Assembly: GCA_946188105.1 (NCBI GenBank)
Contig: CAMHTQ010000002.1
Coordinates: 111,973 to 175,972 of the forward strand
Source: an uncultured Alphaproteobacteria bacterium
GTDB taxonomy: Bacteria; Pseudomonadota; Alphaproteobacteria; Rs-D84
Direction of reading: 5' to 3'
Length of the DNA stretch: 64,000 nucleotides
Of this stretch, positions 3,121 through 32,043 are shown piece after piece; position 1 is the stretch's first letter; each line of letters opens with the position of its first letter. The notes beneath the pieces are model-generated. The model was not told the origin of the DNA. It did no database searches and was given only the letters and a program-made list of their open reading frames with translations. Both the position numbers and the translations under genes were made by a program.

Positions 3121-4621
<1,501 letters not shown>

Positions 4622-5119: not shown

Positions 5120-7860
<2,741 letters not shown>

Positions 7861-7940
7861 ATCTTATCGTTTGTTTAATTACAAACGATAATGCTTGAAG
7901 AGAATGTTGATTCAAAAGTTTACGATGTGCTGGATTTAAT

Positions 7941-8056
7941 TCTGGTGATTATAGAGCGGAAGTCACCCTCTGTTCCATCCCGAACCAGACAGGGAAACTC
8001 CGTATCGCCGATGGTACTTTGGCTTAAGCCACGGAAGAGTAGGTCGTCGCCAGAAT
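7941..8056 (+). rRNA. rrf: 5S ribosomal RNA
   Basis: About 116 nt. The 5' tctggtga pairs with the 3' tcgccaga (helix I). Internal ccgaaccagacagggaaactccgtatcgccgatggtac matches the conserved 5S loop B/C region. It lies immediately 3' of the 23S. Confidence 0.8.
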
Positions 8057-8088
8057 TAAGTCCAGATGGACATAAAAACCGAAATTTA

Positions 8089-8113
8089 AACCGCCCTTTT
8101 GGGCGGTTTTTTG
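8089..8113 (+). terminator. rRNA operon terminator
   Basis: aaaccgcccttttgggcggttttttg has a perfect GC stem plus a U-tract. Confidence 0.8.
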
Positions 8114-8149
8114 TTGGAAAAACAGGGTTTTTTTGATATAATTAAAAGC

Positions 8150-9234: not shown

Positions 9235-9852
9235 ATGTTTAAAAGAACCACAAAAAAAACAGTAAGAATGGAAGTTTTTACAAATATTCACCTTTATATA
9301 GATGCCCAAGGAAAATATTGTGTGGCATATAAAAAACAAGATTTGTCTGTTCAGGCACTTGCACATCCTGTTGAAACAAATATGAATCCGGGTCATGCCA
9401 ATTGTTTTAAATTTGATACAATTACTGATGCAAACAAATGTTTGCAAGCAATCTATCTGTATTTGCATCCAAAGGCCAGGGTAACAAATGCTACGAAATT
9501 GTATAAAAGTCAAAACGCCAAGACCAAAATATCAAATATAGAATACAGATATTTTTTCAGACCTGAATTTAATCATGTTTGGAATCCAGCCAATGGCTAT
9601 ACCGAATGGCTTGTTAATATTCCAGATTTAAAAACAGAATATAAAGAAATGATGGGTTTAGATTTACATTGTTATTATGAACAATACACAAAACAAATCG
9701 AAAAAGAACAAAAAGTTATCGCCAAAGAAGAAGCAAAAGCGAAAAAACTTAGCGATAAAAGAGTAAAGCAAATGATAAAAGATCGTGACAGAAAAGATAA
9801 AATTTTATGCCATATGTTGTACCGAGGTGCAAAGAAATGGGGTTATGTATAA
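9235..9852 (+). CDS. Hypothetical protein (205 aa), no signal peptide
   Basis: ORF with RBS aaaaggaaaaaaATG. Lys-rich coiled-coil C-terminus. No recognised motif. Confidence 0.45.
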   Translation: MFKRTTKKTVRMEVFTNIHLYIDAQGKYCVAYKKQDLSVQALAHPVETNMNPGHANCFKFDTITDANKCLQAIYLYLHPKARVTNATKLYKSQNAKTKISNIEYRYFFRPEFNHVWNPANGYTEWLVNIPDLKTEYKEMMGLDLHCYYEQYTKQIEKEQKVIAKEEAKAKKLSDKRVKQMIKDRDRKDKILCHMLYRGAKKWGYV

Positions 9853-9881
9853 AAATAAGATTGAAACCGTCAGCATGGCGG

Positions 9882-9907
9882 TTTTTTTATTGGAAATATA
9901 TTGACAG
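9882..9907 (+). repeat. Repeated terminator-tail/promoter cassette, copy 2
   Basis: tttttttattggaaatatattgaca. See copy 1. Confidence 0.6.
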
Positions 9908-9949
9908 TCGGTATATCCTATACTATTCTCTGGCAAAAGCTTAGATAAA

Positions 9950-10987
9950 ATGATTGTTTACAAAAGTAAAAGATTTTTACTACTGGTTGCTATGGGAACA
10001 TTGTTAATTGCTGCCCAGGATACTGATGAAAAACAAAAATTTGAAAATGGTAAAGATCATTTGCGTCAAGAAATAGAATCTGCAAAAAAAGAATTATATT
10101 TGGTTCGTCCGCATATTGAAAAACAGGTCCAAGACAGCATTGCTAACTATGATAAAACATCAACAAATGCACTGTTGTTGCAAGAAAAACGGCAAGAAAA
10201 ACAAGATTTACAAATCAAAATTACCCAAATTACAGAACAATGTTGGAAAGAATATTGGTTGAAAAACTTTCCAAAATATACGGCATACATAGATTCTTTG
10301 TTTTCTGAAAAAGATATCCAAGAATTATCAGATTACGTTGATTTGGCACATTTTACACTCAGTTGCGACATAGATACAAATTACTATAATTCATTGGATG
10401 AAATATTATACGGCCCATATTGGCGAGAATTTGCGTTTTTTATATCATCTGAATCACCAAAGTTGGCGAAAAAATATACAAATGTTCGTAAATCTGCGGA
10501 ACAGCAATACCCATTTATATTTCCAAAAACGGTCTTTTACGATGGACCACAAATAACAACAACGGATTCAACCAAGGCAAATGCCACATTTACCGAGGCG
10601 ATTAAATTGGGGCGGGAATTATTGCGTCAAAAATCTGTCGCTCCAAACAATTATATGTATAAATACAATAAATACCGTAATGTTTCTAAAATATTTACAG
10701 CCGATATACACTTTTTTGTTGAAAGTATTTTTGTTGGATACCAAGAATATATGGATTTGCAATCTCCATTATTTGCATTGCATATAGATGAATTACAAAC
10801 ATTAACAAATGATGTTATATCGCTGAATTCCCAGATAATCCGGTTAAATATACGACATGACAAAGAGATCAAAAATATAAAAAATCATTTTGATACCATA
10901 GTCAGACAGCAAGAATCAGATAAATCCGCCCATATTAAATTATTACAAAATGCGCTAGAAATGTTTTCAGCCCAAAAAACAAAATAA
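9950..10987 (+). CDS. Secreted coiled-coil hypothetical protein (345 aa)
   Basis: Signal-peptide-like N-terminus MIVYKSKRFLLLVAMGTLLIAAQ. The sequence is Glu/Lys/Gln-rich throughout. Confidence 0.45.
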   Translation: MIVYKSKRFLLLVAMGTLLIAAQDTDEKQKFENGKDHLRQEIESAKKELYLVRPHIEKQVQDSIANYDKTSTNALLLQEKRQEKQDLQIKITQITEQCWKEYWLKNFPKYTAYIDSLFSEKDIQELSDYVDLAHFTLSCDIDTNYYNSLDEILYGPYWREFAFFISSESPKLAKKYTNVRKSAEQQYPFIFPKTVFYDGPQITTTDSTKANATFTEAIKLGRELLRQKSVAPNNYMYKYNKYRNVSKIFTADIHFFVESIFVGYQEYMDLQSPLFALHIDELQTLTNDVISLNSQIIRLNIRHDKEIKNIKNHFDTIVRQQESDKSAHIKLLQNALEMFSAQKTK

Positions 10988-11280
10988 AAACCGCCCGACA
11001 AACCTCATTTTCGGATGTTTATGAAAACAAGGTGTCGTTGAATGGCGGTTTTTACAACGCCCCAATATTTTATGGTTAGCGGGGCATTGCTGGTCTTTAT
11101 GACCCCAAACCCTTGATAAAATCATTGGGTTTGCTGCGGTATCATAAAAGACATAGATATTATGTGCCATTTTACCTTGTGTTTCCACAGGGACGTTTTC
11201 TTATGATTTTTGTTGCACTTTTAAAATTTTAGTCTAGAATCTTTAATATACGAGAGAGAATAAATATAAAAGGTCAAAAA

Positions 11281-11628
11281 ATGAAGAAAATTATTTTATT
11301 GTCTCTTGTGTTTGGTTTGATTACCAGTTCTGCTTTTGCAACATATTACCAAACAACAACTTCTGATTGCAGTGATGCCGCTATGATGGCTGAATTAGAC
11401 AGAGCAACTGCCACACATCGTGCAGTGGTTACTGATGTTACATGCACATACAGTGTGCCAAAACCAGCACCTCAGGTTGCAAAGCCAGCATACAAACCTG
11501 TATATAAACCAACAACATATTTCTATTACGAAGAATATGAAACTGTGGTTGTTGAACCAGCACCAACAGTTGAGGTAATCAGTGTTGTCGAAGAAGAAAG
11601 TTGTTCTTGTGTTAAATGTGGTTGCTAA
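11281..11628 (+). CDS. Small secreted protein (115 aa) with Pro/Lys repeats and a C-terminal Cys cluster
   Basis: Signal peptide MKKIILLSLVFGLITSSAFA. Repeats KPAPQVAKPAYKPVYKP. C-terminal SCSCVKCGC. Confidence 0.5.
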   Translation: MKKIILLSLVFGLITSSAFATYYQTTTSDCSDAAMMAELDRATATHRAVVTDVTCTYSVPKPAPQVAKPAYKPVYKPTTYFYYEEYETVVVEPAPTVEVISVVEEESCSCVKCGC

Positions 11629-11660
11629 AGTATAATAAAAACCCATTTCGAGTTTGAAAT

Positions 11661-11879
11661 ATGCAGAAAACACAAAAACAACAATCCAGACATAAAAATG
11701 CCAAAACCATCTTTTGGTGTGTCGTGTTTGTTTTGATTTGGACAGCATTGGTTGTGGCAAATGCATATGATACAGCAAAACGTGCCAAAGGAATGTTCAG
11801 TTCTGAAACACAAAACAACAATGTTCAAAATGCACAACAACAAATGGGTGTTTATACTAATGTCGGCAAAGTAAGATAA
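11661..11879 (+). CDS. Small single-pass membrane protein (72 aa), hypothetical
   Basis: Hydrophobic helix IFWCVVFVLIWTALVVANA after a basic N-terminus. Confidence 0.35.
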   Translation: MQKTQKQQSRHKNAKTIFWCVVFVLIWTALVVANAYDTAKRAKGMFSSETQNNNVQNAQQQMGVYTNVGKVR

Positions 11880-11915
11880 AATGCCGGCAAATATCGGGAA
11901 AAAATAGGACAGAAA

Positions 11916-12569
11916 ATGATAAAAACAAACGCACAGCTAAACAAAATGTCGACAAAACAATTAGTGGGTTATTTATCTAAACATTATTTGTTATACGAAA
12001 CAACCGTGTTGCCAGAATCAATAAAAATTGGTGATATTGAAATAAAGCAAATCAAAACACCAAAAAATACAAATGCAACAACATGTTGTGGTGATATTTA
12101 CGGATTTTATGTAAATGGCAAAGCAGTATATTTGCACGATGAAATCTTGGAAAATGGCAGTAATGAATTGTTTTTTCAAATTGTAAAATTATACAATAAA
12201 ATTCTGTACAGAAAAAACACAACAAAAGCAAGATTTATTAATTTCAAGACAAACATTACGAATTTTGCATGGGTGGGTGTTTATACATTATTGGTTGGAA
12301 CGGCTGGATATATGATTGGTCAACAAGAGCAACAGAAAAAAGATATGCCTGAATTCGAACCTAAAAAAGAATGCCCAAAACAAACACCGGTCAAATCAGA
12401 AAATCAAACTGTGTTGTATGGCGATGTTCGTGATTTCCAAATACCACAAGAACAAACTTTTGATACAGTAAAATCAAATGTAGCAAATGATACAAAATAT
12501 CAAGATACTCTCAGAATTTATGGTGATATTCGTGATTTTGTATTAAAAGGTAATCAAAATACAAAATAA
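11916..12569 (+). CDS. Hypothetical single-pass membrane protein (217 aa), paralog A
   Basis: N-terminal soluble domain of about 110 aa, a mid-protein TM helix (FAWVGVYTLLVGTAGYMIG), and a C-terminal tail. It shares this architecture with the adjacent gene 12585..13127. Confidence 0.5.
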   Translation: MIKTNAQLNKMSTKQLVGYLSKHYLLYETTVLPESIKIGDIEIKQIKTPKNTNATTCCGDIYGFYVNGKAVYLHDEILENGSNELFFQIVKLYNKILYRKNTTKARFINFKTNITNFAWVGVYTLLVGTAGYMIGQQEQQKKDMPEFEPKKECPKQTPVKSENQTVLYGDVRDFQIPQEQTFDTVKSNVANDTKYQDTLRIYGDIRDFVLKGNQNTK

Positions 12570-12584
12570 GGGGGTAAAACAGGA

Positions 12585-13127
12585 ATGCACGTTATGGATC
12601 AGTCCTTACCAGATTTAGTAAAATATTTAAATAAATGTTATAAAGAATATAATGTCAGTCGTGTTGATGGGTTTTGGAAAATTGGCGATGTATGTATTGC
12701 AAAATTCCCAGATGCATATAGTTCAGATAGATTTTATATTCAAACACCTGAACACAAATATATTGTAACAAAAGACAGAATATACACAAAACAACCAATA
12801 AAAACAGAGTTGTATATCGAAGAGACAAATGTTTGGGTTGCGGATTCCGTATATGATAATTTAACCAAGTTATACAATGCGATAGAAAATCAATATAAAA
12901 AGAATAAAAAATCCCAACATACAAAGTTAGGATTGGTTGGTGTTTCTGTGTTGGTTATTGGTGGCGGAATATTATTATGGTTGGGTAGCAAGATTGATAA
13001 TAAAACTCAAACCCAAGAACGTAATCAAATAAAGAAAGAATATCTGGATGCAATGTATAAAAATGGCGATATAAATGATTCTGTGTATCAAGTTTATCAA
13101 AAAGAACTTGGTCAAAAAACAAAATAA
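12585..13127 (+). CDS. Hypothetical single-pass membrane protein (180 aa), paralog B
   Basis: Same architecture as 11916..12569 (LYNAIENQYKKNKKSQHTK followed by TM LGLVGVSVLVIGGGILLWLG). Strong RBS gggggtaaaacaggaATG. Confidence 0.5.
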   Translation: MHVMDQSLPDLVKYLNKCYKEYNVSRVDGFWKIGDVCIAKFPDAYSSDRFYIQTPEHKYIVTKDRIYTKQPIKTELYIEETNVWVADSVYDNLTKLYNAIENQYKKNKKSQHTKLGLVGVSVLVIGGGILLWLGSKIDNKTQTQERNQIKKEYLDAMYKNGDINDSVYQVYQKELGQKTK

Positions 13128-17920: not shown

Positions 17921-18424
17921 ATGAAAAAAATTGCTTTATTTGGTTTGATTTGTGTGATGGGAATTGCTTCATCTGCTAATGCTGGATGGTTCAGCAACCT
18001 GTTTAACAAAGAACCAGAACCACAAACATTATCCGAGGCATGCAGCACAGATGATATCACTGCAATTTGCCCAGAAATCGTTTTGGGTGAAAAAACATTG
18101 GCTGGATGTTTGTCAGACAATGTAAAATCTTTATCAAAAAAATGTGCTAAATTTGTGAAAAAATCAATCAAAGAAAACAAAGATTTGGTTTTGGAAAACA
18201 AAGATGCCGCAACAAATGCTGTAACTGAACAAGTTCAAGAAGTCAAAGCTGCAGTTGCTGAAAAGAAAGCACAAAAAGAAGAAGTAAAAAAATCTTTCAA
18301 AGATAAAAAAGCTGCAATCAAAGCAAATGCCAAGGCGGCAGGCAAAGAATTAAAAGATACTGCCCAGGCGGTAAAGCAAGATGCGATTGAAACAGGAAAA
18401 TCTGTAAAAGAAATTGCAAAATAA
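17921..18424 (+). CDS. Secreted Lys/Ala-rich hypothetical protein (167 aa)
   Basis: Signal peptide MKKIALFGLICVMGIASSANA. A four-Cys N-module, then a low-complexity K/A/E helical region. Good RBS aaaggggtaaaaaATG and its own terminator at 18427-18453. Confidence 0.55.
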   Translation: MKKIALFGLICVMGIASSANAGWFSNLFNKEPEPQTLSEACSTDDITAICPEIVLGEKTLAGCLSDNVKSLSKKCAKFVKKSIKENKDLVLENKDAATNAVTEQVQEVKAAVAEKKAQKEEVKKSFKDKKAAIKANAKAAGKELKDTAQAVKQDAIETGKSVKEIAK

Positions 18425-18569
18425 AAAATTTCGCCCGTTTGGGCGATTTTTTTTATGGTGTCATACGCGTTTTTCTATTTACACGGTTTAACTAAAAATG
18501 GTATAATACATATAAAGTGAAGGTTTAAAATAAAAAAATGGCTGAAATATGCCGTTTCAGGAGAGCTCT

Positions 18570-20768
18570 ATGAAAAACCAAAAAATGACAGATGCATACA
18601 AAAATGCGATGGGGACAGTTTTCTTACTCGCTGGTGCATTTTTTATTTGTTCAACATTGTTATCAATGCGGACGGTTCTTGCTGATCCAATTGCGCCGGT
18701 AACCGCAACAAGATCCCAGGTCAGTCCTGCTCGTGCGGCGGCTCGTAATACTACGAAAACACGTTCTTCGGTTGCTCGTTCTACAACGACACGTGCGGTT
18801 GCAACACCACGTGACAGTGCGGCTGGTGCTCGTAATATTCGTACTCGCAGTGTACGTGTTCGTACCACCGATGGTGCCAGTCAAGAAGTCCAACAGGCTG
18901 TACGTAATGATATAAAAACACGTTCAGTATCCCAACGTCGTGGCGGAACTGGTGCTACCCGTAATACACAACGTGTGGTCGCCAGAACTGCAACAACACC
19001 TTCACGTGTAAGTTTGGTCGGTACGGGAATGCGTGCAACAACTGGAACTTCTACCAGTAATGCAACCGTTTCTTATCTGTCAACCAAGGTATATTCAAAC
19101 AATTATTCAAACATCATTGATTCTTCAACTGGTTTGATTTCTGCCGATGCATACAGCGACTGCTTAGAGGGTTACTATACATGTATGGATGAAATCTGCA
19201 CAGCCCGCAGTGATACCAAGGGTCGTTGCTCTTGTGCTGGACGTGCAACAAACTTCTTGGCGGCTGAAACAGCATTGGAAAAGGCAAATGAAGAGTTAAT
19301 CAATTTGTCTGGTCAATTGGCATTGTTGGTCGCAACCAAGGGTAAAGACGTCAGCGAGGCATTTAAATTAACCGATGCTGAAAAGGTTATGAACTGTGTT
19401 TCATATAAAGAAAATGTTTTAACGGGAAATCAAACTGCTGCCGATTGGTACCAAGAACACCCAACATGGAACAGTTCTAATGCAAAACAAACATCTGGTA
19501 TCCCAGAATATTGCCAAGAAAGCGGAAACAGTTTCGGATTCGACATCAGTTCAATCAACGGTTCTGGCTCGGATATTTTGGCATCATTAAAGGCATGGGC
19601 TGATGCAAAAGATTTGGCCAAAGAATATACAGTGAACGACAGTGATAATTTGTTATCACAATATGGTGCGGTTGCTGGTGTTGTGAACGGTTTGTCCGGT
19701 GTTACAACAACCGATATAGACGAGGCAAAATTAGACGGTTTGGCAAACAAATGGGGGTATGAATTATTTGAATATGCTCACAACAATGTTTGCGGTCGTG
19801 TATTAGATGCGTGCTTTAACGGAATTTACGAGGCATGTGGTACACCACCATCTGGTGTTGACTCTGCTGGACATAAAATTGGTAAATGCGCAAACAGTGC
19901 ATCAACATCTTGTCCATATAACTACAATAGTGCAATCGCGGTCAAGGTCAGTGGCGATGGCTCGGGTGAGGTTACATTGAACGAACGTGGCTCCACAGGC
20001 AGTTCAACAACCACATCTGCAACATGCTTTGGTTATACATCTGCATCTGGTGATCCTTATGCAACTTTGCGTGGCCCTGTTGCTGATGCTCGTCGCAGTA
20101 TTATGCAGAAATATTTGTTGGATGCCAATGCGGCATGCGATACATATGGAACTGCATTGAAAAATACTGCACAAAACATCAATTATCAAAAAATTGCAGC
20201 AGAACAGGCATTACGTCAAAAACGTATGGAATTCTATAATGCTGAACAGGAAAAATTGCAAAAAGATACTGTCGCTGCTATCGAGAACTTTAACGAATGT
20301 ATCAGTGAAATCTGGGATTGCTATAACGAAAATTCAGATCAAGATACATGGAGTGGTGCTCGTATCAAAACATATTGTGCCCAGGTTTCAAATGTCCCAC
20401 ATTGTTATGAAACTATGATTTGTACACCAACACAAATAACCAGAACAATTGTTGATGTACCAGATAGCACAATGTGCAAGTTTGATGCTTCCGAAGAGGT
20501 AAATACTTGCCGTAACATCGTTACATTGAATGAAATCTTGTATGGTGCGGCTCCTCAGGTAAGTACAGATTCCATAGCCAGTATGATAGATATTTTGAGC
20601 GGCAAGGTTTCAAACAGCAGTTCAGAAATCAATTCTACATACTTGCGTGAGGCATGTTTAAGAATGGCTTTGAACTGTGTCCCTGGCATAGATGATGAAC
20701 AGGGCAACACAGACGATGAATGTCTGCGTAAATGGAAAAAACCAGTAAAAGAAAGCTCTGGAAATTAA
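18570..20768 (+). CDS. Large secreted Cys-rich protein, paralog 1 (about 732 aa). Signal peptide, Arg/Thr-rich disordered region, Cys-rich domain.
   Basis: RBS caggagagctctATG at 18570; the ORF-track ATG at 18549 is possible but lacks an RBS. Signal-anchor LLAGAFFICSTLLSMRTVLA. Residues ~45-170 are R/T/S/A low complexity with repeated ATR tripeptides. Then a Cys-rich region (YTCMDEICTA...GRCSCAG, CGRVLDAC). It is clearly paralogous to 21659..23932. Confidence 0.7.
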   Translation: MKNQKMTDAYKNAMGTVFLLAGAFFICSTLLSMRTVLADPIAPVTATRSQVSPARAAARNTTKTRSSVARSTTTRAVATPRDSAAGARNIRTRSVRVRTTDGASQEVQQAVRNDIKTRSVSQRRGGTGATRNTQRVVARTATTPSRVSLVGTGMRATTGTSTSNATVSYLSTKVYSNNYSNIIDSSTGLISADAYSDCLEGYYTCMDEICTARSDTKGRCSCAGRATNFLAAETALEKANEELINLSGQLALLVATKGKDVSEAFKLTDAEKVMNCVSYKENVLTGNQTAADWYQEHPTWNSSNAKQTSGIPEYCQESGNSFGFDISSINGSGSDILASLKAWADAKDLAKEYTVNDSDNLLSQYGAVAGVVNGLSGVTTTDIDEAKLDGLANKWGYELFEYAHNNVCGRVLDACFNGIYEACGTPPSGVDSAGHKIGKCANSASTSCPYNYNSAIAVKVSGDGSGEVTLNERGSTGSSTTTSATCFGYTSASGDPYATLRGPVADARRSIMQKYLLDANAACDTYGTALKNTAQNINYQKIAAEQALRQKRMEFYNAEQEKLQKDTVAAIENFNECISEIWDCYNENSDQDTWSGARIKTYCAQVSNVPHCYETMICTPTQITRTIVDVPDSTMCKFDASEEVNTCRNIVTLNEILYGAAPQVSTDSIASMIDILSGKVSNSSSEINSTYLREACLRMALNCVPGIDDEQGNTDDECLRKWKKPVKESSGN

Positions 20769-20789
20769 ACAAAAAAAACATATAAATAA

Positions 20790-20822
20790 AAATGCCCGAT
20801 GAAAATCGGGTGTTTTTATTTG
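20790..20822 (+). terminator. Rho-independent terminator
   Basis: aaaaatgcccgatgaaaatcgggtgtttttatt. Confidence 0.75.
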
Positions 20823-20963
20823 GAAAAATGGCACTAAAAACATAAATTGCATAAATTTTTATACAAAAACCTTGACTTAATGTAAAAAAATGTTATTCTT
20901 GGCATAAAGTTTTAGACATTTTGTCGAAACAAAACAAGAACAATTAACAAAGGTGAAAGAAAA

Positions 20964-21263
20964 ATGGGCAATTTTGCAATCTTTCAAACCGGTGGAAAAC
21001 AATACCGCGTCCAAGCTGGCGACACAATCAAGGTCGAAAAAATCAACGCCGAGGGTGATGTTGAATTTGACAAGATTTTGATGATTGGCGACAAGGTCGG
21101 CAATCCATATGTCGAAGGTGCACGTGTTATTGCAACGGTTGTTGAACAAAAACGCGATGACAAAGTTTTGGTGTTCAAGAAAAAACGCCGTCAAAACTAT
21201 CGTCGTACCAAGGGTCATCGTCAATACCTTACCGTATTGAAGATTAAGGAAATCAAGGGCTAA
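20964..21263 (+). CDS. rplU: 50S ribosomal protein L21
   Basis: [27 protein letters not shown]... is a canonical L21 N-terminus. 99 aa. Confidence 0.95.
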
Positions 21264-21283
21264 TTGGCCAAAGGAGTGAAATT

Positions 21284-21550
21284 ATGGCACACAAGAAAGC
21301 TGGTACCTCTACTTCGAACGGACGCGACTCTGCGGGACGCAGATTAGGTGTCAAGAAATCCGGTGGTGCACGTGTTATTCCTGGCAATATCATTATTCGC
21401 CAACGTGGCACAGCCTTCCATCCTGGATTGAATGTCGGTATGGGTAAAGACCACACAATATTTGCCAAGGTTTCAGGCACTGTGAAATTCAAACGTGGTT
21501 TGAATGATCGCAAGACAGTTTCTGTCGTTCCTGATGAAGAAGCAAAATAA
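21284..21550 (+). CDS. rpmA: 50S ribosomal protein L27
   Basis: [28 protein letters not shown]...[17 protein letters not shown] is a canonical L27. 88 aa. Confidence 0.95.
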
Positions 21551-21572
21551 TAAAATAAACATATATTGTTTG

Positions 21573-21612
21573 AACCCACAAAAAGCATCGTGTTTTTTGT
21601 GGGTGTTTTTTT
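21573..21612 (+). terminator. rplU-rpmA terminator
   Basis: aacccacaaaaagcatcgtgttttttgtgggtgtttttttt. Confidence 0.75.
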
Positions 21613-21658
21613 TTACTCTTTTATCTTAGGTAAAAATGTGGTATAATTATCATACAAA

Positions 21659-23932
21659 ATGAGAAACATTTTTTTATGTTTTTTGATGGTATTTTTATCT
21701 GCCACTGGTGCCGAGCATGCAATGGCCGCTGGTCGTTCTACACAAAAAAGGGATATAAACACTGATAATGTGCGGGTTGCAGCCCCGGTTCGTAATGGTG
21801 CAACACGTGCTGCGACGGTTGATACAACAACGCGTTCGGCAACATCTGCGACCAGAAATGCTAATACAACAAATCGTGGTAATGGTGGCAATGTGTCTGG
21901 AACGGTTGTATCACGCGGTGGAAATACATCATCTGTGGTGTCCAGGGGCAAAGAAAAAACACGTGGTAATGTCGTGATAAAACCCAGAACCAGAACAATA
22001 GATTTCGGCGAAAACATAGAAGACAACTATCATGCAGATGTCGTGGGACATAATATTACAACACGTGCTGCTATAAAAAGTGATAACAAGAAAATCACTG
22101 CCCAAGATGTCGCGGATGCCAAAGAATTATTGGAACAAACGGCCAGTTTAAATAAATCTTGTCAGGATCAATATAACGAATGTATGGATCAATTTTGTGC
22201 TGTGGTTGATTCAAACCAAAAACGGTGCAGTTGTTCCGCGAATTTATCAAAATATTCTGGTGTCCAAGAGGCTGTGACCAAGGCAAATGACGAATTGAAC
22301 GAGGTTGCACAACGTATCCGTTATGTCGGGTTGTCTGCTGATGAAATTCGTGCCATTATGACAGAAACAGAGGCCGAGGCAGAATTAAGTGGTAAAAAAG
22401 ATAATTCTGAAACTCGTAATATGTTGAATAGAATCGAGGCATTAATCAAAGATCCAACAACCAGCACAACAACAACCAGTTTGAACGATTTCAGTTTAGA
22501 TTCTGATTTGAATCTGGATTTGGATTTTTCAGAAAACAGTGCTGATATATTCAGTTTGAGTTTTATGGATACTGAAAGTGAAAGTATTTCTAATAAACGC
22601 GGAACGGCATTATACAATGCGGCAAGAAAACGTTGCAAAACAATTTTAACTAACTGTAAAGAAGTTGGTGCTACATCTACACAAATAACCGGCAATTATG
22701 ATTTGGCGATTGATAAAGATTGTATTGCATACGAACAAGGTTTGAAAAAAATGAATCAAACATTGCAATCCAATGTTCGTAGTGCTGGGTTAATGTTGCA
22801 AAAGGCACGTTTGGCGGTTTTACAAAACAAAAACCAATATGATATCAAGGGTTGTATGGGTGCATTGGAATCATGCATGACAGACGATATGGTATGTGGT
22901 GCTGATTATGAAAAATGTTTGGATCCAACCAAAAAATATATCGATGAAAATGGCAAGGTTGTATTGGGTCAAGACATCACATCAATCACCAGATTTATGC
23001 AGAATTTTAATGCTGCGGTTACATCCGATAAATTAGCCGAGGCATCAGCAACAACAATAAATGATGCGACTTGTTCGGATGATGGTTCTTGTGTTATGAA
23101 ATATTTATTAACCAAGATAGGAACCGGTAACAGTGTCAAAGACGGTGGATTATGTCGTGCGGTATTGGATAAATGCCAACAATATACATACAAGGGCGAT
23201 AACAGTGCCTATATTCCTTTTAATGATGTTGTTGTGAATTATATTCAACGTGCAATGGTTAATATCAAATCATCCCAGCATAAAATTATATCTGACTATG
23301 CTTCAACCTGTATGACCGAGGTTGCATCATGTTATAATCAACAGGTATCTCAGGTTAATTCTTGGTCTTCATCTGCCAGTGTTTCCAGTATTAAAAGTGT
23401 AATGACTGGTGCATGTCGTAATGTTGCTTTGACTTGTTCATATTCTGTATTTGCAAATCTGTGTGCCGAGGATGCATCAAACCTTACCAGTTGGGTCTTA
23501 AAAGAAGATTCACAACAAACATCTGGTGGCGAGGGTGAGCAAAACCCAAGTTCAAGTTGCACACCATGTGATAAGGATCATCAAACAGCATGTCTCGAAG
23601 GAATATCTGGTATATTCTATCAGTCGTTATTATGCCCAGAAAATTCTACCTATGCATTTACATCTGATTCATCAGAATCTTGTTCATCAACCAACACATA
23701 CTCTTCAAATCGTATGAAACAGGGATGCGTGAATACTCAATGCAAATGTAATGCTGGATATACTTCATGGAATGGTTCTTGCTTGGCCAGTTGTGCAGAC
23801 ACAGAATATCGTGATGATTATGGTGTGTGTCAAAAATGTACTGGCACAGATCGTCAGTTGGGCGGTGGCACAGTCAATGATGGTGTTGTAACAGGGGAAT
23901 ACAACAAGTGTGAAACAGTTACTTCCGAGTAG
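21659..23932 (+). CDS. Large secreted Cys-rich protein, paralog 2 (757 aa), with a C-terminal EGF-like cysteine signature
   Basis: Signal peptide MRNIFLCFLMVFLSATGAEHAMA. An R/T/N-rich disordered region containing ATR repeats. Cys-rich domain ECMDQFCAV...KRCSCSAN and CRAVLDKC, aligning with paralog 1. Near the C-terminus CKCNAGYTSWNGSCLASC fits the EGF pattern C-x-C-x2-G-Y-x5-C. Confidence 0.7.
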   Translation: MRNIFLCFLMVFLSATGAEHAMAAGRSTQKRDINTDNVRVAAPVRNGATRAATVDTTTRSATSATRNANTTNRGNGGNVSGTVVSRGGNTSSVVSRGKEKTRGNVVIKPRTRTIDFGENIEDNYHADVVGHNITTRAAIKSDNKKITAQDVADAKELLEQTASLNKSCQDQYNECMDQFCAVVDSNQKRCSCSANLSKYSGVQEAVTKANDELNEVAQRIRYVGLSADEIRAIMTETEAEAELSGKKDNSETRNMLNRIEALIKDPTTSTTTTSLNDFSLDSDLNLDLDFSENSADIFSLSFMDTESESISNKRGTALYNAARKRCKTILTNCKEVGATSTQITGNYDLAIDKDCIAYEQGLKKMNQTLQSNVRSAGLMLQKARLAVLQNKNQYDIKGCMGALESCMTDDMVCGADYEKCLDPTKKYIDENGKVVLGQDITSITRFMQNFNAAVTSDKLAEASATTINDATCSDDGSCVMKYLLTKIGTGNSVKDGGLCRAVLDKCQQYTYKGDNSAYIPFNDVVVNYIQRAMVNIKSSQHKIISDYASTCMTEVASCYNQQVSQVNSWSSSASVSSIKSVMTGACRNVALTCSYSVFANLCAEDASNLTSWVLKEDSQQTSGGEGEQNPSSSCTPCDKDHQTACLEGISGIFYQSLLCPENSTYAFTSDSSESCSSTNTYSSNRMKQGCVNTQCKCNAGYTSWNGSCLASCADTEYRDDYGVCQKCTGTDRQLGGGTVNDGVVTGEYNKCETVTSE

Positions 23933-24602
23933 TTATTTTTTCCATAAATTTATTATGATTATCTAACTCTTCCTGATGCGCTGGGAAACTGCGCTTTGGA
24001 AAGTTTGCACCAATTTTTGGGTGTTTTAAAAATGCCTCGTGCTGTTCAGCAATAATATCTTGAACATTTGGTGCTGGTGCAGTATTTTCCAGTTCCAAAA
24101 ATACCTTGGCTAAAATTTCTGCGTCAATTAACGCACCGTGTGCATCGGCACGTGCAGTCAACGGCACACCAAACCATTTTGCCAATGCATCCAATGTATA
24201 TGCCTTGGGTCCGAATACACGATTACGGGCAATAACAATTGAATCCATCTGTTGTTCACGTGAAATTTGTGGTAATCCTAATTTGGCCAATTCAAAGTTC
24301 AAGAAAGGAAAGTCAAAATCAAAACCATTGTGTGCAACAACAGGACTATCTTTGATAAACTCCAAGAATTTAGGGGCGATTTCAGACATTTTTGGTTTGT
24401 CTTCCAAAAAAGCATTAGAAATTTTATGCACCATATATGTTTCTGGCGGAATAATTTTTCCCTCTGGATTTATATATTCATGAAAGGTATTTTCTGTTAA
24501 AACACCATCCAACAATTCAACCGCGCCAATTTCGATACATCTGTCACCACGCGTCCATTCAAATCCAGTCGTTTCAATATCAAAACAAATAATTCTTGCC
24601 AT
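23919..24602 (-). CDS. dnaQ: DNA polymerase III epsilon subunit-like 3'-5' exonuclease (DEDDh)
   Basis: 227 aa. Exo I motif ICFDIETTG, Exo II HNGFDFDFPFL, and Exo III ...HGALIDAEIL. Confidence 0.85.
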   Translation of the reverse strand: MARIICFDIETTGFEWTRGDRCIEIGAVELLDGVLTENTFHEYINPEGKIIPPETYMVHKISNAFLEDKPKMSEIAPKFLEFIKDSPVVAHNGFDFDFPFLNFELAKLGLPQISREQQMDSIVIARNRVFGPKAYTLDALAKWFGVPLTARADAHGALIDAEILAKVFLELENTAPAPNVQDIIAEQHEAFLKHPKIGANFPKRSFPAHQEELDNHNKFMEKITTRK

Positions 24603-26724: not shown

Positions 26725-27999
26725 TTATTTTTTCAACTTGCGGATGCTTTCAAAATTCTTTTTGGTTTTTTTCCATAAACCTGTAATATCTTTTTGAACT
26801 TGTTGACCTAAACCGTCGTCAATCTTGCCACCCCATTCCTCAGCCAAATTTTGTGCTTTTTCTGCCATATAACAAACCAATAACAATGTCAAAATTAAAA
26901 TGATTGCACCACCAATACCATCCATATTTGCACTGGCTGAAATTTGACCTGATGATGCATCTATGACAAAAGATAGCAAGGATATTGCAACCCCAATCGC
27001 AACAGACAAACATACGAAATACAATGCAGCTTTGATAAAACGATTTATCTGTTTTTCTAAACTTTCGCCTTTGAATATTGACAGAAAAGTATTAAATATA
27101 TCGCCGGCAACACCTTTGTAGTTTGTTTTAGCGGTTGTTTCTGCAATAGCGGTAAATGGCAATAACATCATCGCCAAGAATAAATCAGCAATAACCCCCA
27201 GTGCGACAAACAAAAATTTCCAAATACATTTCAAAGCCAAATATGTTACATATAAACCGATAATCACAGAAAATAAACTGACCCCGACGCCACCAACAAC
27301 CCATTTCCAACCAATGCCCATTATTGTTACAAAAAATCCTGACATTTGTGACGGAATACATAATAATCCAGCCGCAGATTCAGCACTGATTGATAATCCA
27401 GCGGGGGTATTTGCCTTGGCATATTGTTCAATCGCCGCACAATTATCAGGAATACTGAATCCAGCCAAACTGGTTACCGATTCCCAAATCACGTGTGATA
27501 TGTATGTTCCTGCGGCCACAATAGGCACCATAATCATCGCAAATGTTTCTGCGATTCCATATTTTAATACAATCAACCATACAGAAATCCAAATACCTTT
27601 GATTAAAATAGTTTTGACGGCTTCTTTGGCATCAGACCCATTTTCAATCAAATTGTATGCTTCGAAAGCAACCCAGAAAGCATAAGCCAACAGCATAAAC
27701 ATCAAAGCAAAACGAACCAACGAAGAATCTAATGCTTTGCCAATACTGGACAATCCGCCCATAAATGCCAAACCAATTTTTGCCTCGATTGGAACAAATG
27801 TTCCCTGTACATTTGATGCTGTTGGACCAAAATTATTTAACTCGTTGGTTATTGTTCCATTAACCAATTCACGATTTTGTGGTGTTGCCCACAAACCATA
27901 ATCACCGATGTCTGTTTCTGCGGCAAAGCCAGGCAATGCGATGAATACAGCAACCACAGCAATCATAATTTTCTTAAAAAGATTAGCCAACATCATCAT
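26725..27999 (-). CDS. virB6: VirB6/TrbL-like polytopic membrane protein, paralog 5 of array (424 aa)
   Basis: Signal peptide, six or more hydrophobic helices, a periplasmic loop with a Cys pair, and a Lys-rich cytoplasmic tail (WKKTKKNFESIRKLKK). This topology is shared with the four neighbouring paralogs, and tandem multiplication is typical of Rickettsiales rvhB6. Confidence 0.55.
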   Translation of the reverse strand: MMMLANLFKKIMIAVVAVFIALPGFAAETDIGDYGLWATPQNRELVNGTITNELNNFGPTASNVQGTFVPIEAKIGLAFMGGLSSIGKALDSSLVRFALMFMLLAYAFWVAFEAYNLIENGSDAKEAVKTILIKGIWISVWLIVLKYGIAETFAMIMVPIVAAGTYISHVIWESVTSLAGFSIPDNCAAIEQYAKANTPAGLSISAESAAGLLCIPSQMSGFFVTIMGIGWKWVVGGVGVSLFSVIIGLYVTYLALKCIWKFLFVALGVIADLFLAMMLLPFTAIAETTAKTNYKGVAGDIFNTFLSIFKGESLEKQINRFIKAALYFVCLSVAIGVAISLLSFVIDASSGQISASANMDGIGGAIILILTLLLVCYMAEKAQNLAEEWGGKIDDGLGQQVQKDITGLWKKTKKNFESIRKLKK

Positions 28000-29495
28000 T
28001 TAATAAACCCATTGTCCTTCAGCCGTTTAACAGCACCGTTCCACCATTTTCCAGGGGCGCGCCAAACCTTTTGTCCCAATTCGTATGTCCATTTACCAAT
28101 ATCAAATTGTTCGCCTGTGGACATATCTGTATTTTCATCCTGTGCCAAAGGTAATTTAACCTTGCTCGCAGGTAACAGTGCATCAATTTTTGGACTTACC
28201 ACATAATAATACAGCAAGAACATACCAAACATAGTTATCAAGAAATCCCATGTGCTGCTCAAATAATCAAATGCCCCCGGGTGCACAGCCTCGATTTGTT
28301 GTTTTTGTTCCAGAAAACATGGTTTGAATTTGTCAGCATCAACCAAACCATCAGCATCTTTGGATTCTGCTTCGCACTTTTTAAATGCATAGATAACAGA
28401 TTCAGATTCCGGTGTTGCATTTGGTGTAACATTTGTTTCCAACAATGGTGGCAATATAGATGTATATCCATCAACTGGACCAGGAAACATCGCATCTGCG
28501 GAATAATAAACAATAGAGAACAGCAAAACAATTTTCAAAGTAATAGATATAACAGAAATCGCCGCCTCGATAACTTTTCCTAATGCTTTACGGAACAGTC
28601 CCGATGCCGCTTTCCAAACTTTTTCGTATGCCGCTGCCGCAATCAATAATGGCAAGAATATAATTACAAAAACAACTTTGAATAAAATAGAAAAAATCTG
28701 AAAGAACAAATCAAAACCAATCACCATAAATGCCAACACCATTAAAAATCCAGAAATCCATGTCAGCATTCCACCGCCCAGCCCCAGCCATGCATAATTC
28801 ATCAAAGAAAATCCACCGGCCGCCCCAGCCAACATTACAGAATATAAATTTCCAAGAACACACATAAATGCCCCAGATACCGCAGCCATAGATCCAGATA
28901 ATTCTGTTGCACCCAAAATAACATTACAATCCGCAGCAGAATTAACCCCCGTTGCAGCCATAGATAAAGCAGCACCAATATATAAAATAGGTGAAATTAA
29001 AATTTCAGAAACAATTTTTAATGCATCTGTGCCACCCATACTTAATGCACCAATCGCGGCACCCGCAATCAAGATTCTTAAACCTAATTTCCATACTGGA
29101 TCAAACCAAGTTTTAAAATCCATATCATTTGCGCTATCCGTATATTCAGCATTTTTCTTTGCTTTTTCCCAGATATATTTAACCGCAGAAATAAACATAT
29201 AAATTGCAAATCCGGCAATCATCAAAATCCACAGGTTATCAACAATCCCAGCCCAAAACATTTCTGATGCCTGGCCCAGCATATTTAACAATTCAACAAC
29301 ATAAGATCCTAAAAACAGGGTGCCAGCATTGCTAACATCATCTTGGGCACCAATGGCGGTCATAAAACTGTCAACCGATGTATATGTTATTGCCGAGCCA
29401 CCAATAGACGAAGACAAATACCAAATCCCCAGCCCAATTGCAATCAGGACACCAACGATTTTAAGTATAATAGCAATCCATTGGAATTTGTTCAT
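27996..29495 (-). CDS. virB6: VirB6/TrbL-like polytopic membrane protein, paralog 4 (499 aa)
   Basis: Multiple TM helices and a K-rich C-tail (GKWWNGAVKRLKDNGFIK). Its stop overlaps the next gene's start by 4 nt, indicating a translationally coupled operon. Confidence 0.55.
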   Translation of the reverse strand: MNKFQWIAIILKIVGVLIAIGLGIWYLSSSIGGSAITYTSVDSFMTAIGAQDDVSNAGTLFLGSYVVELLNMLGQASEMFWAGIVDNLWILMIAGFAIYMFISAVKYIWEKAKKNAEYTDSANDMDFKTWFDPVWKLGLRILIAGAAIGALSMGGTDALKIVSEILISPILYIGAALSMAATGVNSAADCNVILGATELSGSMAAVSGAFMCVLGNLYSVMLAGAAGGFSLMNYAWLGLGGGMLTWISGFLMVLAFMVIGFDLFFQIFSILFKVVFVIIFLPLLIAAAAYEKVWKAASGLFRKALGKVIEAAISVISITLKIVLLFSIVYYSADAMFPGPVDGYTSILPPLLETNVTPNATPESESVIYAFKKCEAESKDADGLVDADKFKPCFLEQKQQIEAVHPGAFDYLSSTWDFLITMFGMFLLYYYVVSPKIDALLPASKVKLPLAQDENTDMSTGEQFDIGKWTYELGQKVWRAPGKWWNGAVKRLKDNGFIK

Positions 29496-29500
29496 TTACT

Positions 29501-30703
29501 CTATTCCTTTTGTCCCCGTTTAATAACAGTTTTAGCAACAGTTTTTGTTTTATCCCAAAAACTTTTTGTTGCATTCATAATACTGTCGCCCCATTCTTTG
29601 CCGACCTTGTTGTCGCCAGCAGAAACTTCAAACATACCCAAAATCATCTTTGTGATATTTGGTATGTTATCATAAATAAATGTCAAAACATAAACTAAAA
29701 CAACAACACTGGTTATACTTAAATCACTGAGCCCACTTGTATCCAAATCTGTTTCAAATACAGTTCCAGACATAATAGAATTCAATAAAGATTCATAATT
29801 ATCCATACCATCTGAGCCAGTAAAGAATCTTGCCATAATAACCAAAATAACGGTGTAAGTAATTACAGCAACACCCAAAGAAATAATAGCACTAATCAAA
29901 TTTTTGATTTGTTCTATACCGACACCTTTACCCAATGTTTTTACCCAAGACAGCCAACCAGGAGTGTCTGCAACATCTTTGAATGCGGTTGTAACCAATG
30001 ATAAAGGAAAGAAAAATGCAAACATGGCCATAGCAATAATCACATCCGCAAAATAGCACAAAAATTTAAAAAACATTTTCAAAAAAGCCCAGAACAAATA
30101 CACACCAATAAGTGCCAACAGCAAATGTTTTATAAATGCACCAATACCAAAAAACATTTCCCAAGAAAATCCGGCATCTAACATTGCCACACCCAAAGAC
30201 ATAAAGTTTTGAAATTGTGTAATAGTAATCTTGGCAACATTTATGACGGCATCACGCAGTTCAGGCCGGAATAAACCCTCGTCCTCTTCCATCGGTATCG
30301 GGGTATAAGTAACACGGGTATCTATATTTTCAGGGGTTGTTTTTAACATTGCTGTTGCATATGTTTGTGTAACATAAGCCACAGGTTCAAAAGTTACCGT
30401 TGTAACAAAACGTGGTAACATAACACCCATACCCAAAAAAGCCAAAGCAAATAAAGAGTTCACAAATACAGGACGCAAAGATTTATCAAACCAACCATCT
30501 TGAAATCCTGTGGTTATATTTTTCCATACAGCACCAAAAATATAGAAAGAAAATATTGCACAAAATAAAATGGTGCATATAACAACGAATCTGGGATACA
30601 CAACAGCCGCAGCATCAGATATAATCTGGAACATTCGGTCAAACACAGGGCAAGACCAACATTGCACAGTACTGTTTATAAAATCCTGACCCATTTCCGT
30701 CAT
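29501..30703 (-). CDS. virB6: VirB6/TrbL-like polytopic membrane protein, paralog 3 (400 aa)
   Basis: N-terminal CWSC motif (VQCWSCPVFDRMF) shared with the divergent paralog at 32044. Multi-TM. K-rich tail. Confidence 0.55.
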   Translation of the reverse strand: MTEMGQDFINSTVQCWSCPVFDRMFQIISDAAAVVYPRFVVICTILFCAIFSFYIFGAVWKNITTGFQDGWFDKSLRPVFVNSLFALAFLGMGVMLPRFVTTVTFEPVAYVTQTYATAMLKTTPENIDTRVTYTPIPMEEDEGLFRPELRDAVINVAKITITQFQNFMSLGVAMLDAGFSWEMFFGIGAFIKHLLLALIGVYLFWAFLKMFFKFLCYFADVIIAMAMFAFFFPLSLVTTAFKDVADTPGWLSWVKTLGKGVGIEQIKNLISAIISLGVAVITYTVILVIMARFFTGSDGMDNYESLLNSIMSGTVFETDLDTSGLSDLSITSVVVLVYVLTFIYDNIPNITKMILGMFEVSAGDNKVGKEWGDSIMNATKSFWDKTKTVAKTVIKRGQKE

Positions 30704-31983
30704 TATTTTCCTTTAACCGTTTTCCATACGTTTTTGACACTGCCTGGGAAAGATTTAATTTTACCCCATCCCAATTTTGCATCGCCTTTGACTTGTTCAT
30801 ACAATCTGGTTGCATCTGAACCAACATAACCAGTCAATTTCTTCTTTGTAATTTCAAATAATCTGTTCATTAAAAAGAACGTCAATATACATGACAACCA
30901 CAACATAGAATGTCCTGCAAAACCGCTGGCATTTGCGGTCATATTTGGCAGATTAGAATATGCCGTTCCACCCGCCGCGGCAACAAACATACGATTGTTC
31001 CATTGGAATAATGCACTGACCAATGCCAGATTGACACACAAAATAAATGCACATGCAATCATAGTGATAACGATTTTCTTTAATGCCTCGATAATGCCAG
31101 AAAAGGCCGGCCAAATATCAAACCAACTATCACTTTTTTTTGCAACCCATGCGGCAACATTAAACGGATATAAAATCAAAGCCATACCAAAATCAAATAT
31201 CGCCTGAATAATCAACAGCGCCATAAATAAATTACACCCAGTAAATGTAATAATCAGCAATATTCCAGTTACGATATTCATGAAACCTTGACCGCTGTTA
31301 TGCACCACCAATGTAGCCAAAGATTGTAATCCACTGGCCAAATATCTGAATCCGCGTTTTATAACATTATTGTTTGCACGCGACAATTCATGTACAGGTG
31401 CAATTAAATATTCGCAAGATTCTTTATCCAACCATCCTTGTTCCAACAAATTGTCAGGGCATTTAATCGGATTGACAGCCCCAGTTTGTATTTTTGCAGA
31501 TTGATTCATAACCTCGGTAGTGTACAAAGAACCAAAACTTAAAAATGGGTTTATAACATTTTTTGCGATTGTTTGTGGGTTTAATGGCAATAACAAAATA
31601 ACAGCAACCAATACACGAATCCCAGGTTTTACAATATTATCTGCAATTTTCATACCTGTTGTATTATCAATAGAATCACCAGATTTAAACCCAAATGTAG
31701 AAAGCCAAAATTTAGGTATGTATAATTTTATTAAATACGAAATTATGTAAAAAATAAAAAATCCCCAAACCAGTAAATAAACAATACCGTCATGATGAGG
31801 CCCAACGAAATAAGTGTATGTTCCATTTGCAACAAACATAAAAGCATCTAATACAATTGGAACCAATCCAGAAATATCCAATGAATCTACATCAATCAAA
31901 CCCCATCCAGCAAAAGCACTGTGTGGCACAATCGTACCAAACAGCAAGCATATTCCATATAAAAATTTTTTTATTAAATTCAT
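30703..31983 (-). CDS. virB6: VirB6/TrbL-like polytopic membrane protein, paralog 2 (426 aa)
   Basis: Signal peptide MNLIKKFLYGICLLFGTIVPHSAFA. A large first periplasmic loop with a Cys pair (IKCPDN...ESCEY), then five or more TM helices and a K-rich tail (VKNVWKTVKGK). Confidence 0.55.
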   Translation of the reverse strand: MNLIKKFLYGICLLFGTIVPHSAFAGWGLIDVDSLDISGLVPIVLDAFMFVANGTYTYFVGPHHDGIVYLLVWGFFIFYIISYLIKLYIPKFWLSTFGFKSGDSIDNTTGMKIADNIVKPGIRVLVAVILLLPLNPQTIAKNVINPFLSFGSLYTTEVMNQSAKIQTGAVNPIKCPDNLLEQGWLDKESCEYLIAPVHELSRANNNVIKRGFRYLASGLQSLATLVVHNSGQGFMNIVTGILLIITFTGCNLFMALLIIQAIFDFGMALILYPFNVAAWVAKKSDSWFDIWPAFSGIIEALKKIVITMIACAFILCVNLALVSALFQWNNRMFVAAAGGTAYSNLPNMTANASGFAGHSMLWLSCILTFFLMNRLFEITKKKLTGYVGSDATRLYEQVKGDAKLGWGKIKSFPGSVKNVWKTVKGK

Positions 31984-32043
31984 CTTAAATAATTATTATT
32001 GTAATTATATCATAAATTGGTAAAAATATGTTATAATTAAAAT

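Follow-up and report, generated by a model that had tools for sequence, protein, structure and literature searches.

The window analysed in this study is a 64,000-nucleotide stretch of contig CAMHTQ010000002.1 from an uncultured alphaproteobacterium of the GTDB order Rs-D84. It carries two genes, here termed A and B, whose large, cysteine-rich and predicted exported products are the subject of this report. The corresponding open reading frames (ORFs), 18549..20768 (739 aa, gene A) and 21659..23932 (757 aa, gene B), are both intact and lie on the plus strand. For gene A the ORF reaches back to 18549, and the start at 18570 is preferred based on a GGAG six bases upstream and on orthologs that begin MKNQKM; gene A is thus set at 18570..20768 and its 732-aa product is 100% identical to database protein P0121 (732 aa). 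The start of gene B at 21659 (21659..23932, 757 aa) is backed by orthologs beginning MRNIFLCFL. The database model of this protein, P0001 (748 aa), starts 9 codons downstream of the ortholog-conserved start and seems to begin too late. Between A and B, also on the plus strand, the ORF list places rplU (20964..21263) and rpmA (21284..21550), as the initial annotation of this DNA had stated; the syntenic genes of a related locus (L001) match Pfam Ribosomal_L21p and L27, respectively.

An identical extended -10 element, TGGTATAAT, was found 5' of both genes, at 18499-18507 for A and at 21638-21646 for B. In front of gene A it forms part of a promoter-like site on the plus strand (18478..18507, TTTACA-18-TATAAT with a TG extension). 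The element of gene B (21638..21646, plus strand) was found by sequence inspection and was not called by a two-hexamer promoter scan. It lies only 13 nt before the start codon and so implies a very short leader; with no Shine-Dalgarno sequence visible in 21638..21661, the gene B mRNA may be nearly leaderless at translation. Hairpins followed by T-runs were located at 18431-18446, after the small gene upstream of A, and at 20795..20820 (plus strand) after A, where the scan called the hairpin on the minus strand. A strong terminator (21574..21604, plus strand, 14-bp stem, T9) separates rpmA from B. No terminator was located after B, the 3' end of which overlaps the convergent dnaQ gene (23919..24602). 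Thus, of the proposal that each gene has its own promoter and terminator, the shared extended -10 and the terminator after A agree with it, but the terminator of B was not found.

Both products had been described as a signal peptide and an Arg/Thr-rich region of about 120 aa followed by a Cys-rich part, and hydropathy, composition and AlphaFold2 (AF2) models all agree with this layout. By hydropathy scan, A and B were each found to have one N-terminal hydrophobic segment and no further transmembrane segment; cleavage sites were judged by inspection and not by a dedicated signal-peptide predictor. Coordinates of protein segments given here and below refer to the plus strand. Residues 1-23 of B (21659..21727) have the features of a Sec-type signal peptide, with a hydrophobic stretch at 4-22 and predicted cleavage between AMA and AG, and its orthologs share the pattern MRNIFLCFL...A.A. 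Residues 1-38 of A (18570..18683), hydrophobic at 13-31, may be either a signal peptide cleaved between VLA and DP or a retained membrane anchor. In the ortholog alignment of A (alignment A2), about 25 positions within residues 1-40 are invariant or nearly so. This segment (18570..18689), with the consensus KNAMGTVFLLAxAFFxCSTxxSMRxVxADPIAP, is more conserved than the ~130 residues that follow. Such conservation is unusual for a cleaved signal peptide, which suggests that the N-terminus of A stays in the membrane as an anchor or serves as a specific signal for recognition.

The low-complexity regions are predicted to be disordered, with AF2 predicted local distance difference test (pLDDT) values of about 30 in A and 27-42 in B. 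In A the region (residues 39-165, 18684..19064) is basic and rich in Arg, Thr, Ser, Ala and Val (T27 R22 A20 S16 V15 over residues 41-180), with a recurring [ST]R.V..R-like spacing, and its Arg positions are kept across alignment A2. In B the region (residues 24-144, 21728..22090) is rich in Arg, Thr, Asn, Gly and Val (T16 R13 V13 A12 G12 N12 over residues 21-130) and varies in length and sequence among orthologs (alignment A1). The recurring ATR tripeptides that had been noted here amount to only 2 occurrences per protein and form no meaningful repeat. Within the basic N-terminal region (columns ~200-290 of alignment A1), most B orthologs carry the motif VGRNxRV...NxxPxxRRAGxxLRPxxAEVGGRAxIxGTxxQTGSN; it is absent from the B of the window and its closest relatives, which have low-complexity sequence instead.

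The remainder of each protein is Cys-rich and predicted to be mainly helical. In A, a shared Cys-rich helical module (residues 192-288, 19143..19433; invariant C198, C205, C210, C220 and C222) precedes a Cys-rich body (residues 289-732, 19434..20765) that includes a predicted helix of ~90 residues; the AF2 model of A that displays this helix (m620c111aac33) is of poor confidence, with a mean pLDDT of 56. In B, the corresponding module (residues 162-255, 22142..22423; invariant C168, C175, C180, C190 and C192) is followed at residues 256-660 (22424..23638) by an acidic LDxDLDFS...FSLDF segment, modelled with low confidence, and by a helical bundle with Cys pairs at i,i+7 spacing. The AF2 model of B (mb2d8774929eb) has a mean pLDDT of 64, with values of 70-90 over most of residues 320-600 and of 74-91 over 690-757. 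It displays helical hairpins around the first Cys cluster, long helices at 340-389 and 523-569, and short beta-hairpins at the C-terminus. These hairpins fall in a C-terminal module (residues 684-757, 23708..23929) of the form CxCxxGYxxWxGxCxxxCx11CxxC plus a partial second unit.

The Cys residues total 25 in A and 35 in B; outside the signal segment 24 and 34 remain, both even numbers. Nearly all are invariant in alignments of 35-39 orthologs at only 50-70% identity (22 invariant Cys for A in alignment A2), and many form i,i+7 pairs within predicted helices. Based on the even counts, the invariance and the i,i+7 pairing, together with the scarcity of CxxC motifs and His, we infer that these residues form disulfides that staple helices and are not metal sites. 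Metal binding was considered as a role for them and seems unlikely, given the few CxxC motifs. No DsbA, DsbB or VKOR gene was detected within the 64-kb window or the fetched syntenic loci.

Relationship, distribution and conservation of A and B

Pairwise alignment of A and B, a check proposed with the initial annotation, detected significant similarity within the Cys-rich module. By BLASTP, one significant high-scoring segment pair was found (A205-278 / B168-240, 74 aa, 30% identity, E 2e-7). Comparison of the A-family and B-family profiles by hhalign gave E 2.9e-11 over 93 columns and, with alternative alignments, E 7.7e-10 over B1-213 / A14-243, an extent that takes in the signal segment, the basic tether and the module. 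The shared module is of ~95 residues and has the invariant pattern C-x3-Y-x2-C-M-D-x2-C-x9-R-C-x-C ... A-N-x-E-L. Further along the proteins, the co-linear islands CxxExxxCYN (B540-572 / A560-597; P 0.011) and C(G)R(A)VLDxC (B498-512 / A407-421; P 0.5) are not convincing alone. The Cys motifs previously described as co-linear thus do share their order, but significance is confined to the N-terminal module. Likewise, the claim that A and B are paralogs holds for the N-terminal ~210-240 residues, which are significantly related, but not for the other ~500 residues, which are not detectably homologous. Taken together, the profile comparisons indicate that A and B share an architecture and a homologous N-terminal third (~210-240 residues); full-length paralogy is possible.

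A third paralog with the shared module was sought by use of a module hidden Markov model (HMM) and rejected, as the HMM matched A and B only, across the window and all 83 fetched loci. The small protein encoded immediately upstream of A does not carry the module by the same HMM. When the module profile was compared to 1.84 billion representative sequences, 468 clusters were matched at E <= 1e-3 and 283 at E <= 1e-10; the top 150 of the 468 consisted of 116 B-like clusters, 20 A-like clusters and 14 fragments. On present evidence, the shared module appears to define just the A and B families.

The two proteins had also been reported to match no recognised family, and this is what our searches found. 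Pfam gave no match at or above cut-off for A, for B or for the C-terminal 103 residues of B, and NCBIfam gave none for A or B. In both databases, A, B, the small upstream protein and the neighbouring membrane proteins yielded sub-threshold noise (CTD6, DUF4378, RloB, Cys_rich_FGFR). A search of PDB sequences with the A and B family profiles found nothing below E 0.15. By Foldseek, the best match of the B model in the PDB was at E 0.68, local matches of 74-80 columns to the Cys-rich regions of the HER2/EGFR ectodomains were weak (E 2-4), and nothing significant was found in BFVD. By these comparisons the A and B families, their shared module and the C-terminal repeat of B are absent from Pfam and NCBIfam and are without a recognisably similar solved structure. 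The two proteins might instead be divergent members of a known periplasmic enzyme or binding-protein family, masked by their low-complexity and Cys-rich sequence, since remote homology can escape HMM searches and the AF2 models are imperfect. With family, sequence and fold searches all null, we regard this as highly improbable.

Homologs are numerous and confined to one lineage. More than 1100 homologs each of A and B were found at E <= 1e-3 among 90%-identity clusters and, where a source name was given, it was 'hypothetical protein' from an Alphaproteobacteria metagenome-assembled genome. A scan of one genome per species identified B relatives in 295 genomes. The 80 fetched B loci bear titles such as Candidatus Enterousia, uncultured Alphaproteobacteria and 'Rickettsiales', and come from human, ruminant, horse, chicken and other guts. 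By this sampling, the A and B families are restricted to gut bacteria of Candidatus Enterousia / GTDB order Rs-D84. One fetched contig (L016, CAVGNU010000001.1), deposited as 'Bacteroides fragilis isolate ... cleanbin', has the full Enterousia-type synteny PPDK-A-rplU-rpmA-B-dnaQ-uvrD-membrane protein genes and is evidently mis-binned or mislabelled. Rs-D84 bacteria have genomes of <1 Mb, are strict fermenters without respiratory chains and have almost no biosynthesis (PMC12306168). They have been proposed to depend on partner cells and to take metabolites from other cells via uncharacterised membrane proteins (PMC12306168). Our literature search found no paper linking Enterousia to proteins such as A and B or to a type IV secretion system (T4SS).

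Conservation of A and B was compared to that of neighbouring gene products as the median identity to the window proteins, over loci holding all of the genes compared. The medians were 52% for A and 57% for B, compared to 61% for UvrD, 61% for the ABC transporter, 80% for DnaQ, 81% for L21, and 44% and 49% for the membrane proteins m1 and m2. As the values of A and B are near that of UvrD, the alignments indicate that both proteins are under strong purifying selection despite their low-complexity parts. Conservation at this housekeeping level sets them apart from typical fast-evolving effectors.

C-terminal arrays of B and candidate roles of the two proteins

The C-terminus of B had been reported to satisfy an EGF-type signature. 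Residues 695-708, CKCNAGYTSWNGSC (23741..23782), match the EGF_2 pattern (PROSITE PS01186, C-x-C-x2-[GP]-[FYW]-x4,8-C). This pattern occurs in 0.15% of shuffles of B, in 116/120 B relatives and in 0/120 A relatives, and the match is not due to chance. It lies in a module of ~45 residues with six conserved Cys (CxC-x10-C-x3-C-x11-C-x2-C), for which AF2 predicts short strands at residues 695-734 with pLDDT values of 74-91. The module is found in tandem in the longer B orthologs P0014, P0006, P0030 and P0042. A still longer ortholog, P0369 (2338 aa, 121 Cys), has repeats of related 4-Cys modules separated by Pro/Glu/Gln-rich linkers. Thus, the B family keeps a conserved part of ~720 residues and adds C-terminal Cys-rich arrays to it. 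No EGF-type Pfam model was matched at E <= 1 by B, its C-terminal 103 residues or the multi-module orthologs, and none at E <= 0.1 by further multi-module B orthologs; the sole PDB match of the module profile was a weak one to an EGF-like module of reelin (E 0.18). The conserved motif therefore stands but EGF homology is unsupported: the module is EGF-like in motif and probably in hairpin topology, and, as judged from these profiles, neither its place in the EGF superfamily nor an origin in eukaryotes is proven.

The EGF-type signature was part of the earlier suggestion that A and B are host-interaction proteins tied to a T4SS. In this form, A and B would be substrates or extracellular accessories of a Rickettsiales-type T4SS and would act on a eukaryotic host via an EGF-like domain. 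That the organism has a T4SS, as had been stated, agrees with the homologs of VirB10/TrbI (59386..61902, minus strand) and VirB9/CagX (61926..63434, minus strand, 502 aa) found in the window. At 838 aa the VirB10 homolog is of unusual length, its TrbI domain being limited to residues 416-619, and a 175-aa minus-strand ORF in the VirB8 position (within 59386..63982) matches no family. These genes, the conserved motif of B and the weak matches to HER2/EGFR and reelin noted above all speak for the T4SS connection. They are set against genes that lie ~35 kb from A and B and are not syntenic with either in the fetched loci, no VirB-type domain in A or B by Pfam, and no Pfam EGF-family model even with many tandem modules in an ortholog. 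Substrates of T4SS of the VirB/D4 type are as a rule recognised in the cytoplasm; A and B have Sec-type signal peptides. Moreover, A (52%) and B (57%) are nearly as well conserved as UvrD (61%). Taken together, these findings make a T4SS role for A and B quite unlikely. An exported or surface role, the other half of the suggestion, remains plausible, and it is the tie to the T4SS that finds no support.

Evidence on where the proteins may act came from their variation. In one human-gut species, 41 variants with a median identity of 98.3% were compared, and variable positions reached 4-5% compared to ~0.2% in the core. The variable parts were the N-terminal tether, a loop at 481-540 (numbered as in P0092), a segment at 631-660 and the C-terminal module; among the same 41 variants, variation in the tether, the two loops and the C-terminal module was 10-20 times the core level. 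Between species, the C-terminal end of the B family differs by >1500 residues. In addition, Flg_new (PF09479) was matched above the Pfam threshold at the C-terminus of five B orthologs (P0089, P0115, P0119, P0253 and P0254) and just below threshold in an A ortholog (P0224). Repeats of the Flg_new type are a typical feature of surface proteins in bacteria. A base that is conserved and a distal end that is plastic and, in these orthologs, bears Flg_new fit the pattern expected of a surface-exposed structure.

Based on these results, our preferred reading, to which we give a probability of about 0.45, makes A and B the founding members of two related families, specific to Rs-D84, of elongated proteins that are exported via Sec, stapled by disulfides and located in the envelope or on the surface. 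Their conserved helical bodies would be core structural elements, and their variable ends, above all in the B family, would contact the exterior. In both proteins an N-terminal export or anchor segment would lead into a flexible, basic, Arg/Thr-rich tether and then into an elongated helical body stapled by many invariant Cys. In the B family this body would end in small CxCxxGY-type hairpins, which in other members are expanded into long variable arrays, sometimes with Flg_new. The conserved base would serve as a structural element of the core envelope or of a cell-surface rod, and the variable distal end would have an adhesive or contact function, touching, for example, the mucosal matrix or the surface of a partner or host cell; of these, a partner or host surface appears the most plausible.

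Several points weigh against this reading. No outer-membrane route is evident for A or B (no autotransporter barrel, lipobox or type I secretion system signal), so both could stay in the periplasm, and their location on the surface is one that we infer from sequence features. The B of the window has only ~1.5 C-terminal modules, and Flg_new is absent from both window proteins by Pfam. The higher variability of the tip could reflect relaxed constraint instead of selection. Oxidative folding is assumed, in a lineage of strict fermenters without respiratory chains, and disulfide connectivity is not readable from AF2 models of moderate (B) or poor (A) confidence.

The first of these points leads to an alternative in which A and B never reach the surface and instead form a periplasmic scaffold, with the basic tether bound to peptidoglycan or to the inner leaflet of the envelope and the Cys-stapled rods cross-linking or spacing the envelope. 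Sec-type N-termini coupled with no recognisable outer-membrane export or anchoring device are what such a scaffold would have, and the unusually conserved N-terminal segment of A fits a retained inner-membrane anchor. Conservation of both proteins at the housekeeping level, predicted helices of 50-90 residues that could span the periplasm, and the position of B beside cell-wall genes in some genomes (PBP1a, MraY, FtsW and MurG in L054) point the same way. By contrast, the Cys-rich C-terminal arrays, mucin-like linkers and Flg_new repeats of the orthologs are typical of extracellular proteins, a span of >1500 residues in C-terminal length between species is hard to fit into a periplasm of fixed width, and within-species variation is concentrated at the tip. 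This purely periplasmic scaffold is the main rival of the preferred reading, and on balance we consider it somewhat unlikely.

Gene neighbourhood

The commonest gene order in the fetched relatives is PPDK, an ABC transporter gene or a gene for a small Cys/Lys protein or PagL, then A, rplU, rpmA, B, dnaQ (minus strand), uvrD and four genes for polytopic membrane proteins (minus strand). In the window, the small gene upstream of A (17921..18424, plus strand) encodes a 167-aa protein of secreted type, with a signal peptide, 4 Cys in the mature part and a Lys/Ala/Glu-rich helical tail. It agrees with the third secreted Cys/Lys-rich gene of the initial annotation. Many relatives have the gene in synteny 5' of A, and in others (such as L001) a PagL gene takes its place. 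The N-terminal part of the product, which holds the 4 Cys, has a weak match to the Pfam 'cysteine rich repeat' Cys_rich_FGFR (E 0.039), below cut-off.

Other arrangements were also observed. In L048, the ribosomal genes are missing from between the two and A directly adjoins B. B is the last gene of a co-directional cluster, m4-m3-m2-m1-B, in L036, L054 and L061 (at about 500..8200 of each locus), and the fifth membrane protein gene still flanks this cluster. In L054, B is followed by genes related to the cell wall and envelope (PBP1a, MliC, MraY, FtsW and MurG), and a sigma-factor gene precedes B in L066 and L079. In ~16 fetched genomes, none of the neighbours found in the window flank B. The pair had been proposed to result from duplication around a fixed rplU-rpmA locus. 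Given that the order is the commonest and not a universal one, the varied contexts of B do not require this explanation.

Downstream of uvrD, four tandem genes on the minus strand (26725..27999, 27996..29495, 29501..30703 and 30703..31983) encode polytopic membrane proteins of 424, 499, 400 and 426 aa, respectively, each with 6-8 hydrophobic segments; similarity among the four is weak. At 32044..33357, a divergently transcribed gene encodes a fifth polytopic protein, of 437 aa, that looks alike in style; the similarity comparison covered the first four. An N-terminal CWSC(P/Q)xF motif is common to the proteins of 29501..30703 and 32044..33357. The membrane proteins of 26725..33357 belong to no Pfam or NCBIfam family, and their 229 homologs are all named 'hypothetical'. 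The arrangement recalls the tandem VirB6 (rvhB6) arrays carried by Rickettsiales. The proteins were considered as VirB6/TrbL paralogs, and sequence comparison does not support this: TrbL was matched once among 6 members, at E 0.71, no PDB hit was obtained and the 229 homologs are unannotated. As these proteins are not demonstrably VirB6/TrbL, they count as a further point against the T4SS role discussed above.

Judged by gene order, a functional link of B to the membrane-protein cluster or to the envelope is possible but unproven, and the recurrent closeness of B to this cluster is suggestive and may be only ancestral gene order. In a proposal that goes beyond the preferred reading and that we consider unlikely, A and B might together build a surface appendage of a new kind, with two subunits stapled by disulfides, by which an obligately partner-dependent gut alphaproteobacterium docks on its host or partner cell. 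Its parts in the envelope would be the basic tether and the anchor segment conserved in A; the tip arrays of the B family (EGF-like hairpins, Flg_new) would set partner specificity, and export or anchoring would fall to the polytopic membrane proteins encoded nearby (26725..33357; the four in tandem and the fifth). If this were true, the cluster would be a new system for attachment or exchange that spans the envelope, as opposed to a T4SS accessory.

Elsewhere in the window, many ORFs of 170-385 aa without a Pfam family at E <= 0.01 were found at 339..2554, 9235..13127, 33424..33936, 42461..43552 and 55035..56054; lineage-specific genes make up a high proportion for a genome of <1 Mb. The rRNA operon (3120..8055) is complete (16S, tRNA-Ile(GAT), 23S and 5S) and has a single spacer tRNA, with no tRNA-Ala found between 16S and 23S.

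Significance and comparison with known systems

Rs-D84/Enterousia bacteria are widespread in the guts of humans, ruminants, horses and chickens, have never been cultured and have genomes of <1 Mb. Most of their metabolites are without a known source, and cell contact is the central open question for this lineage. Large, conserved throughout the lineage, predicted to be exported, variable at the tips and without a homolog of known function, A and B are testable candidates for contact or envelope machinery. A new Cys-rich repeat and one or more new domains, among them the CxxxYxxCMDxxC...RCSC module, also come from these families; entered into family databases, they could make the annotation of thousands of 'hypothetical' metagenomic proteins better. 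If the Cys residues are indeed disulfide-bonded, the question arises of how a non-respiring strict anaerobe oxidises its exported proteins.

With respect to known systems, the C-terminal module of B resembles EGF, laminin-type EGF and furin-like repeats in its C-x-C-x2-G-Y-x6-C motif, its length of ~45 residues, its 6 conserved Cys and its predicted beta-hairpins, and its tandem repetition in orthologs is like that of the EGF/furin-like repeats of eukaryotic surface proteins. It differs from an EGF-like domain in that its Cys spacing is not the canonical six-Cys spacing and no Pfam EGF model is matched; in addition, A lacks the module and in B it accounts for <10% of the protein. Surface proteins with Listeria-Bacteroides repeats, such as the internalin B-repeat, are similar to the B family in that several B orthologs end in Flg_new and a conserved base is joined to variable C-terminal repeats. 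By contrast to internalins, the conserved A/B part of ~700 residues is unrelated, and no leucine-rich repeat, LPXTG or GW anchoring modules are present.

CagY, the VirB10 homolog of the Helicobacter pylori Cag T4SS, has a large helical repeat region that contains Cys and varies in repeat number between strains. It is likened to A and B as a lead only, based on a large helical segment with regularly spaced Cys in a T4SS-bearing bacterium. A and B differ from it in having no VirB10/TrbI domain, no adjacent T4SS genes and no detected similarity, and the VirB10 of this genome is encoded by a separate gene. Chlamydia has disulfide-cross-linked, Cys-rich envelope proteins in its outer membrane complex, and the likeness of A and B to the chlamydial OmcB and OmcA is one of concept, drawn from general knowledge: a host-dependent bacterium with a reduced genome has envelope proteins that are exported via Sec and rich in invariant Cys. 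In sequence and fold the two groups show no similarity; OmcB and OmcA are rich in beta structure, A and B mainly helical by prediction. As modular, Cys-rich proteins exported to the envelope or surface of a host-dependent bacterium, A and B would belong to a general kind that is already familiar.

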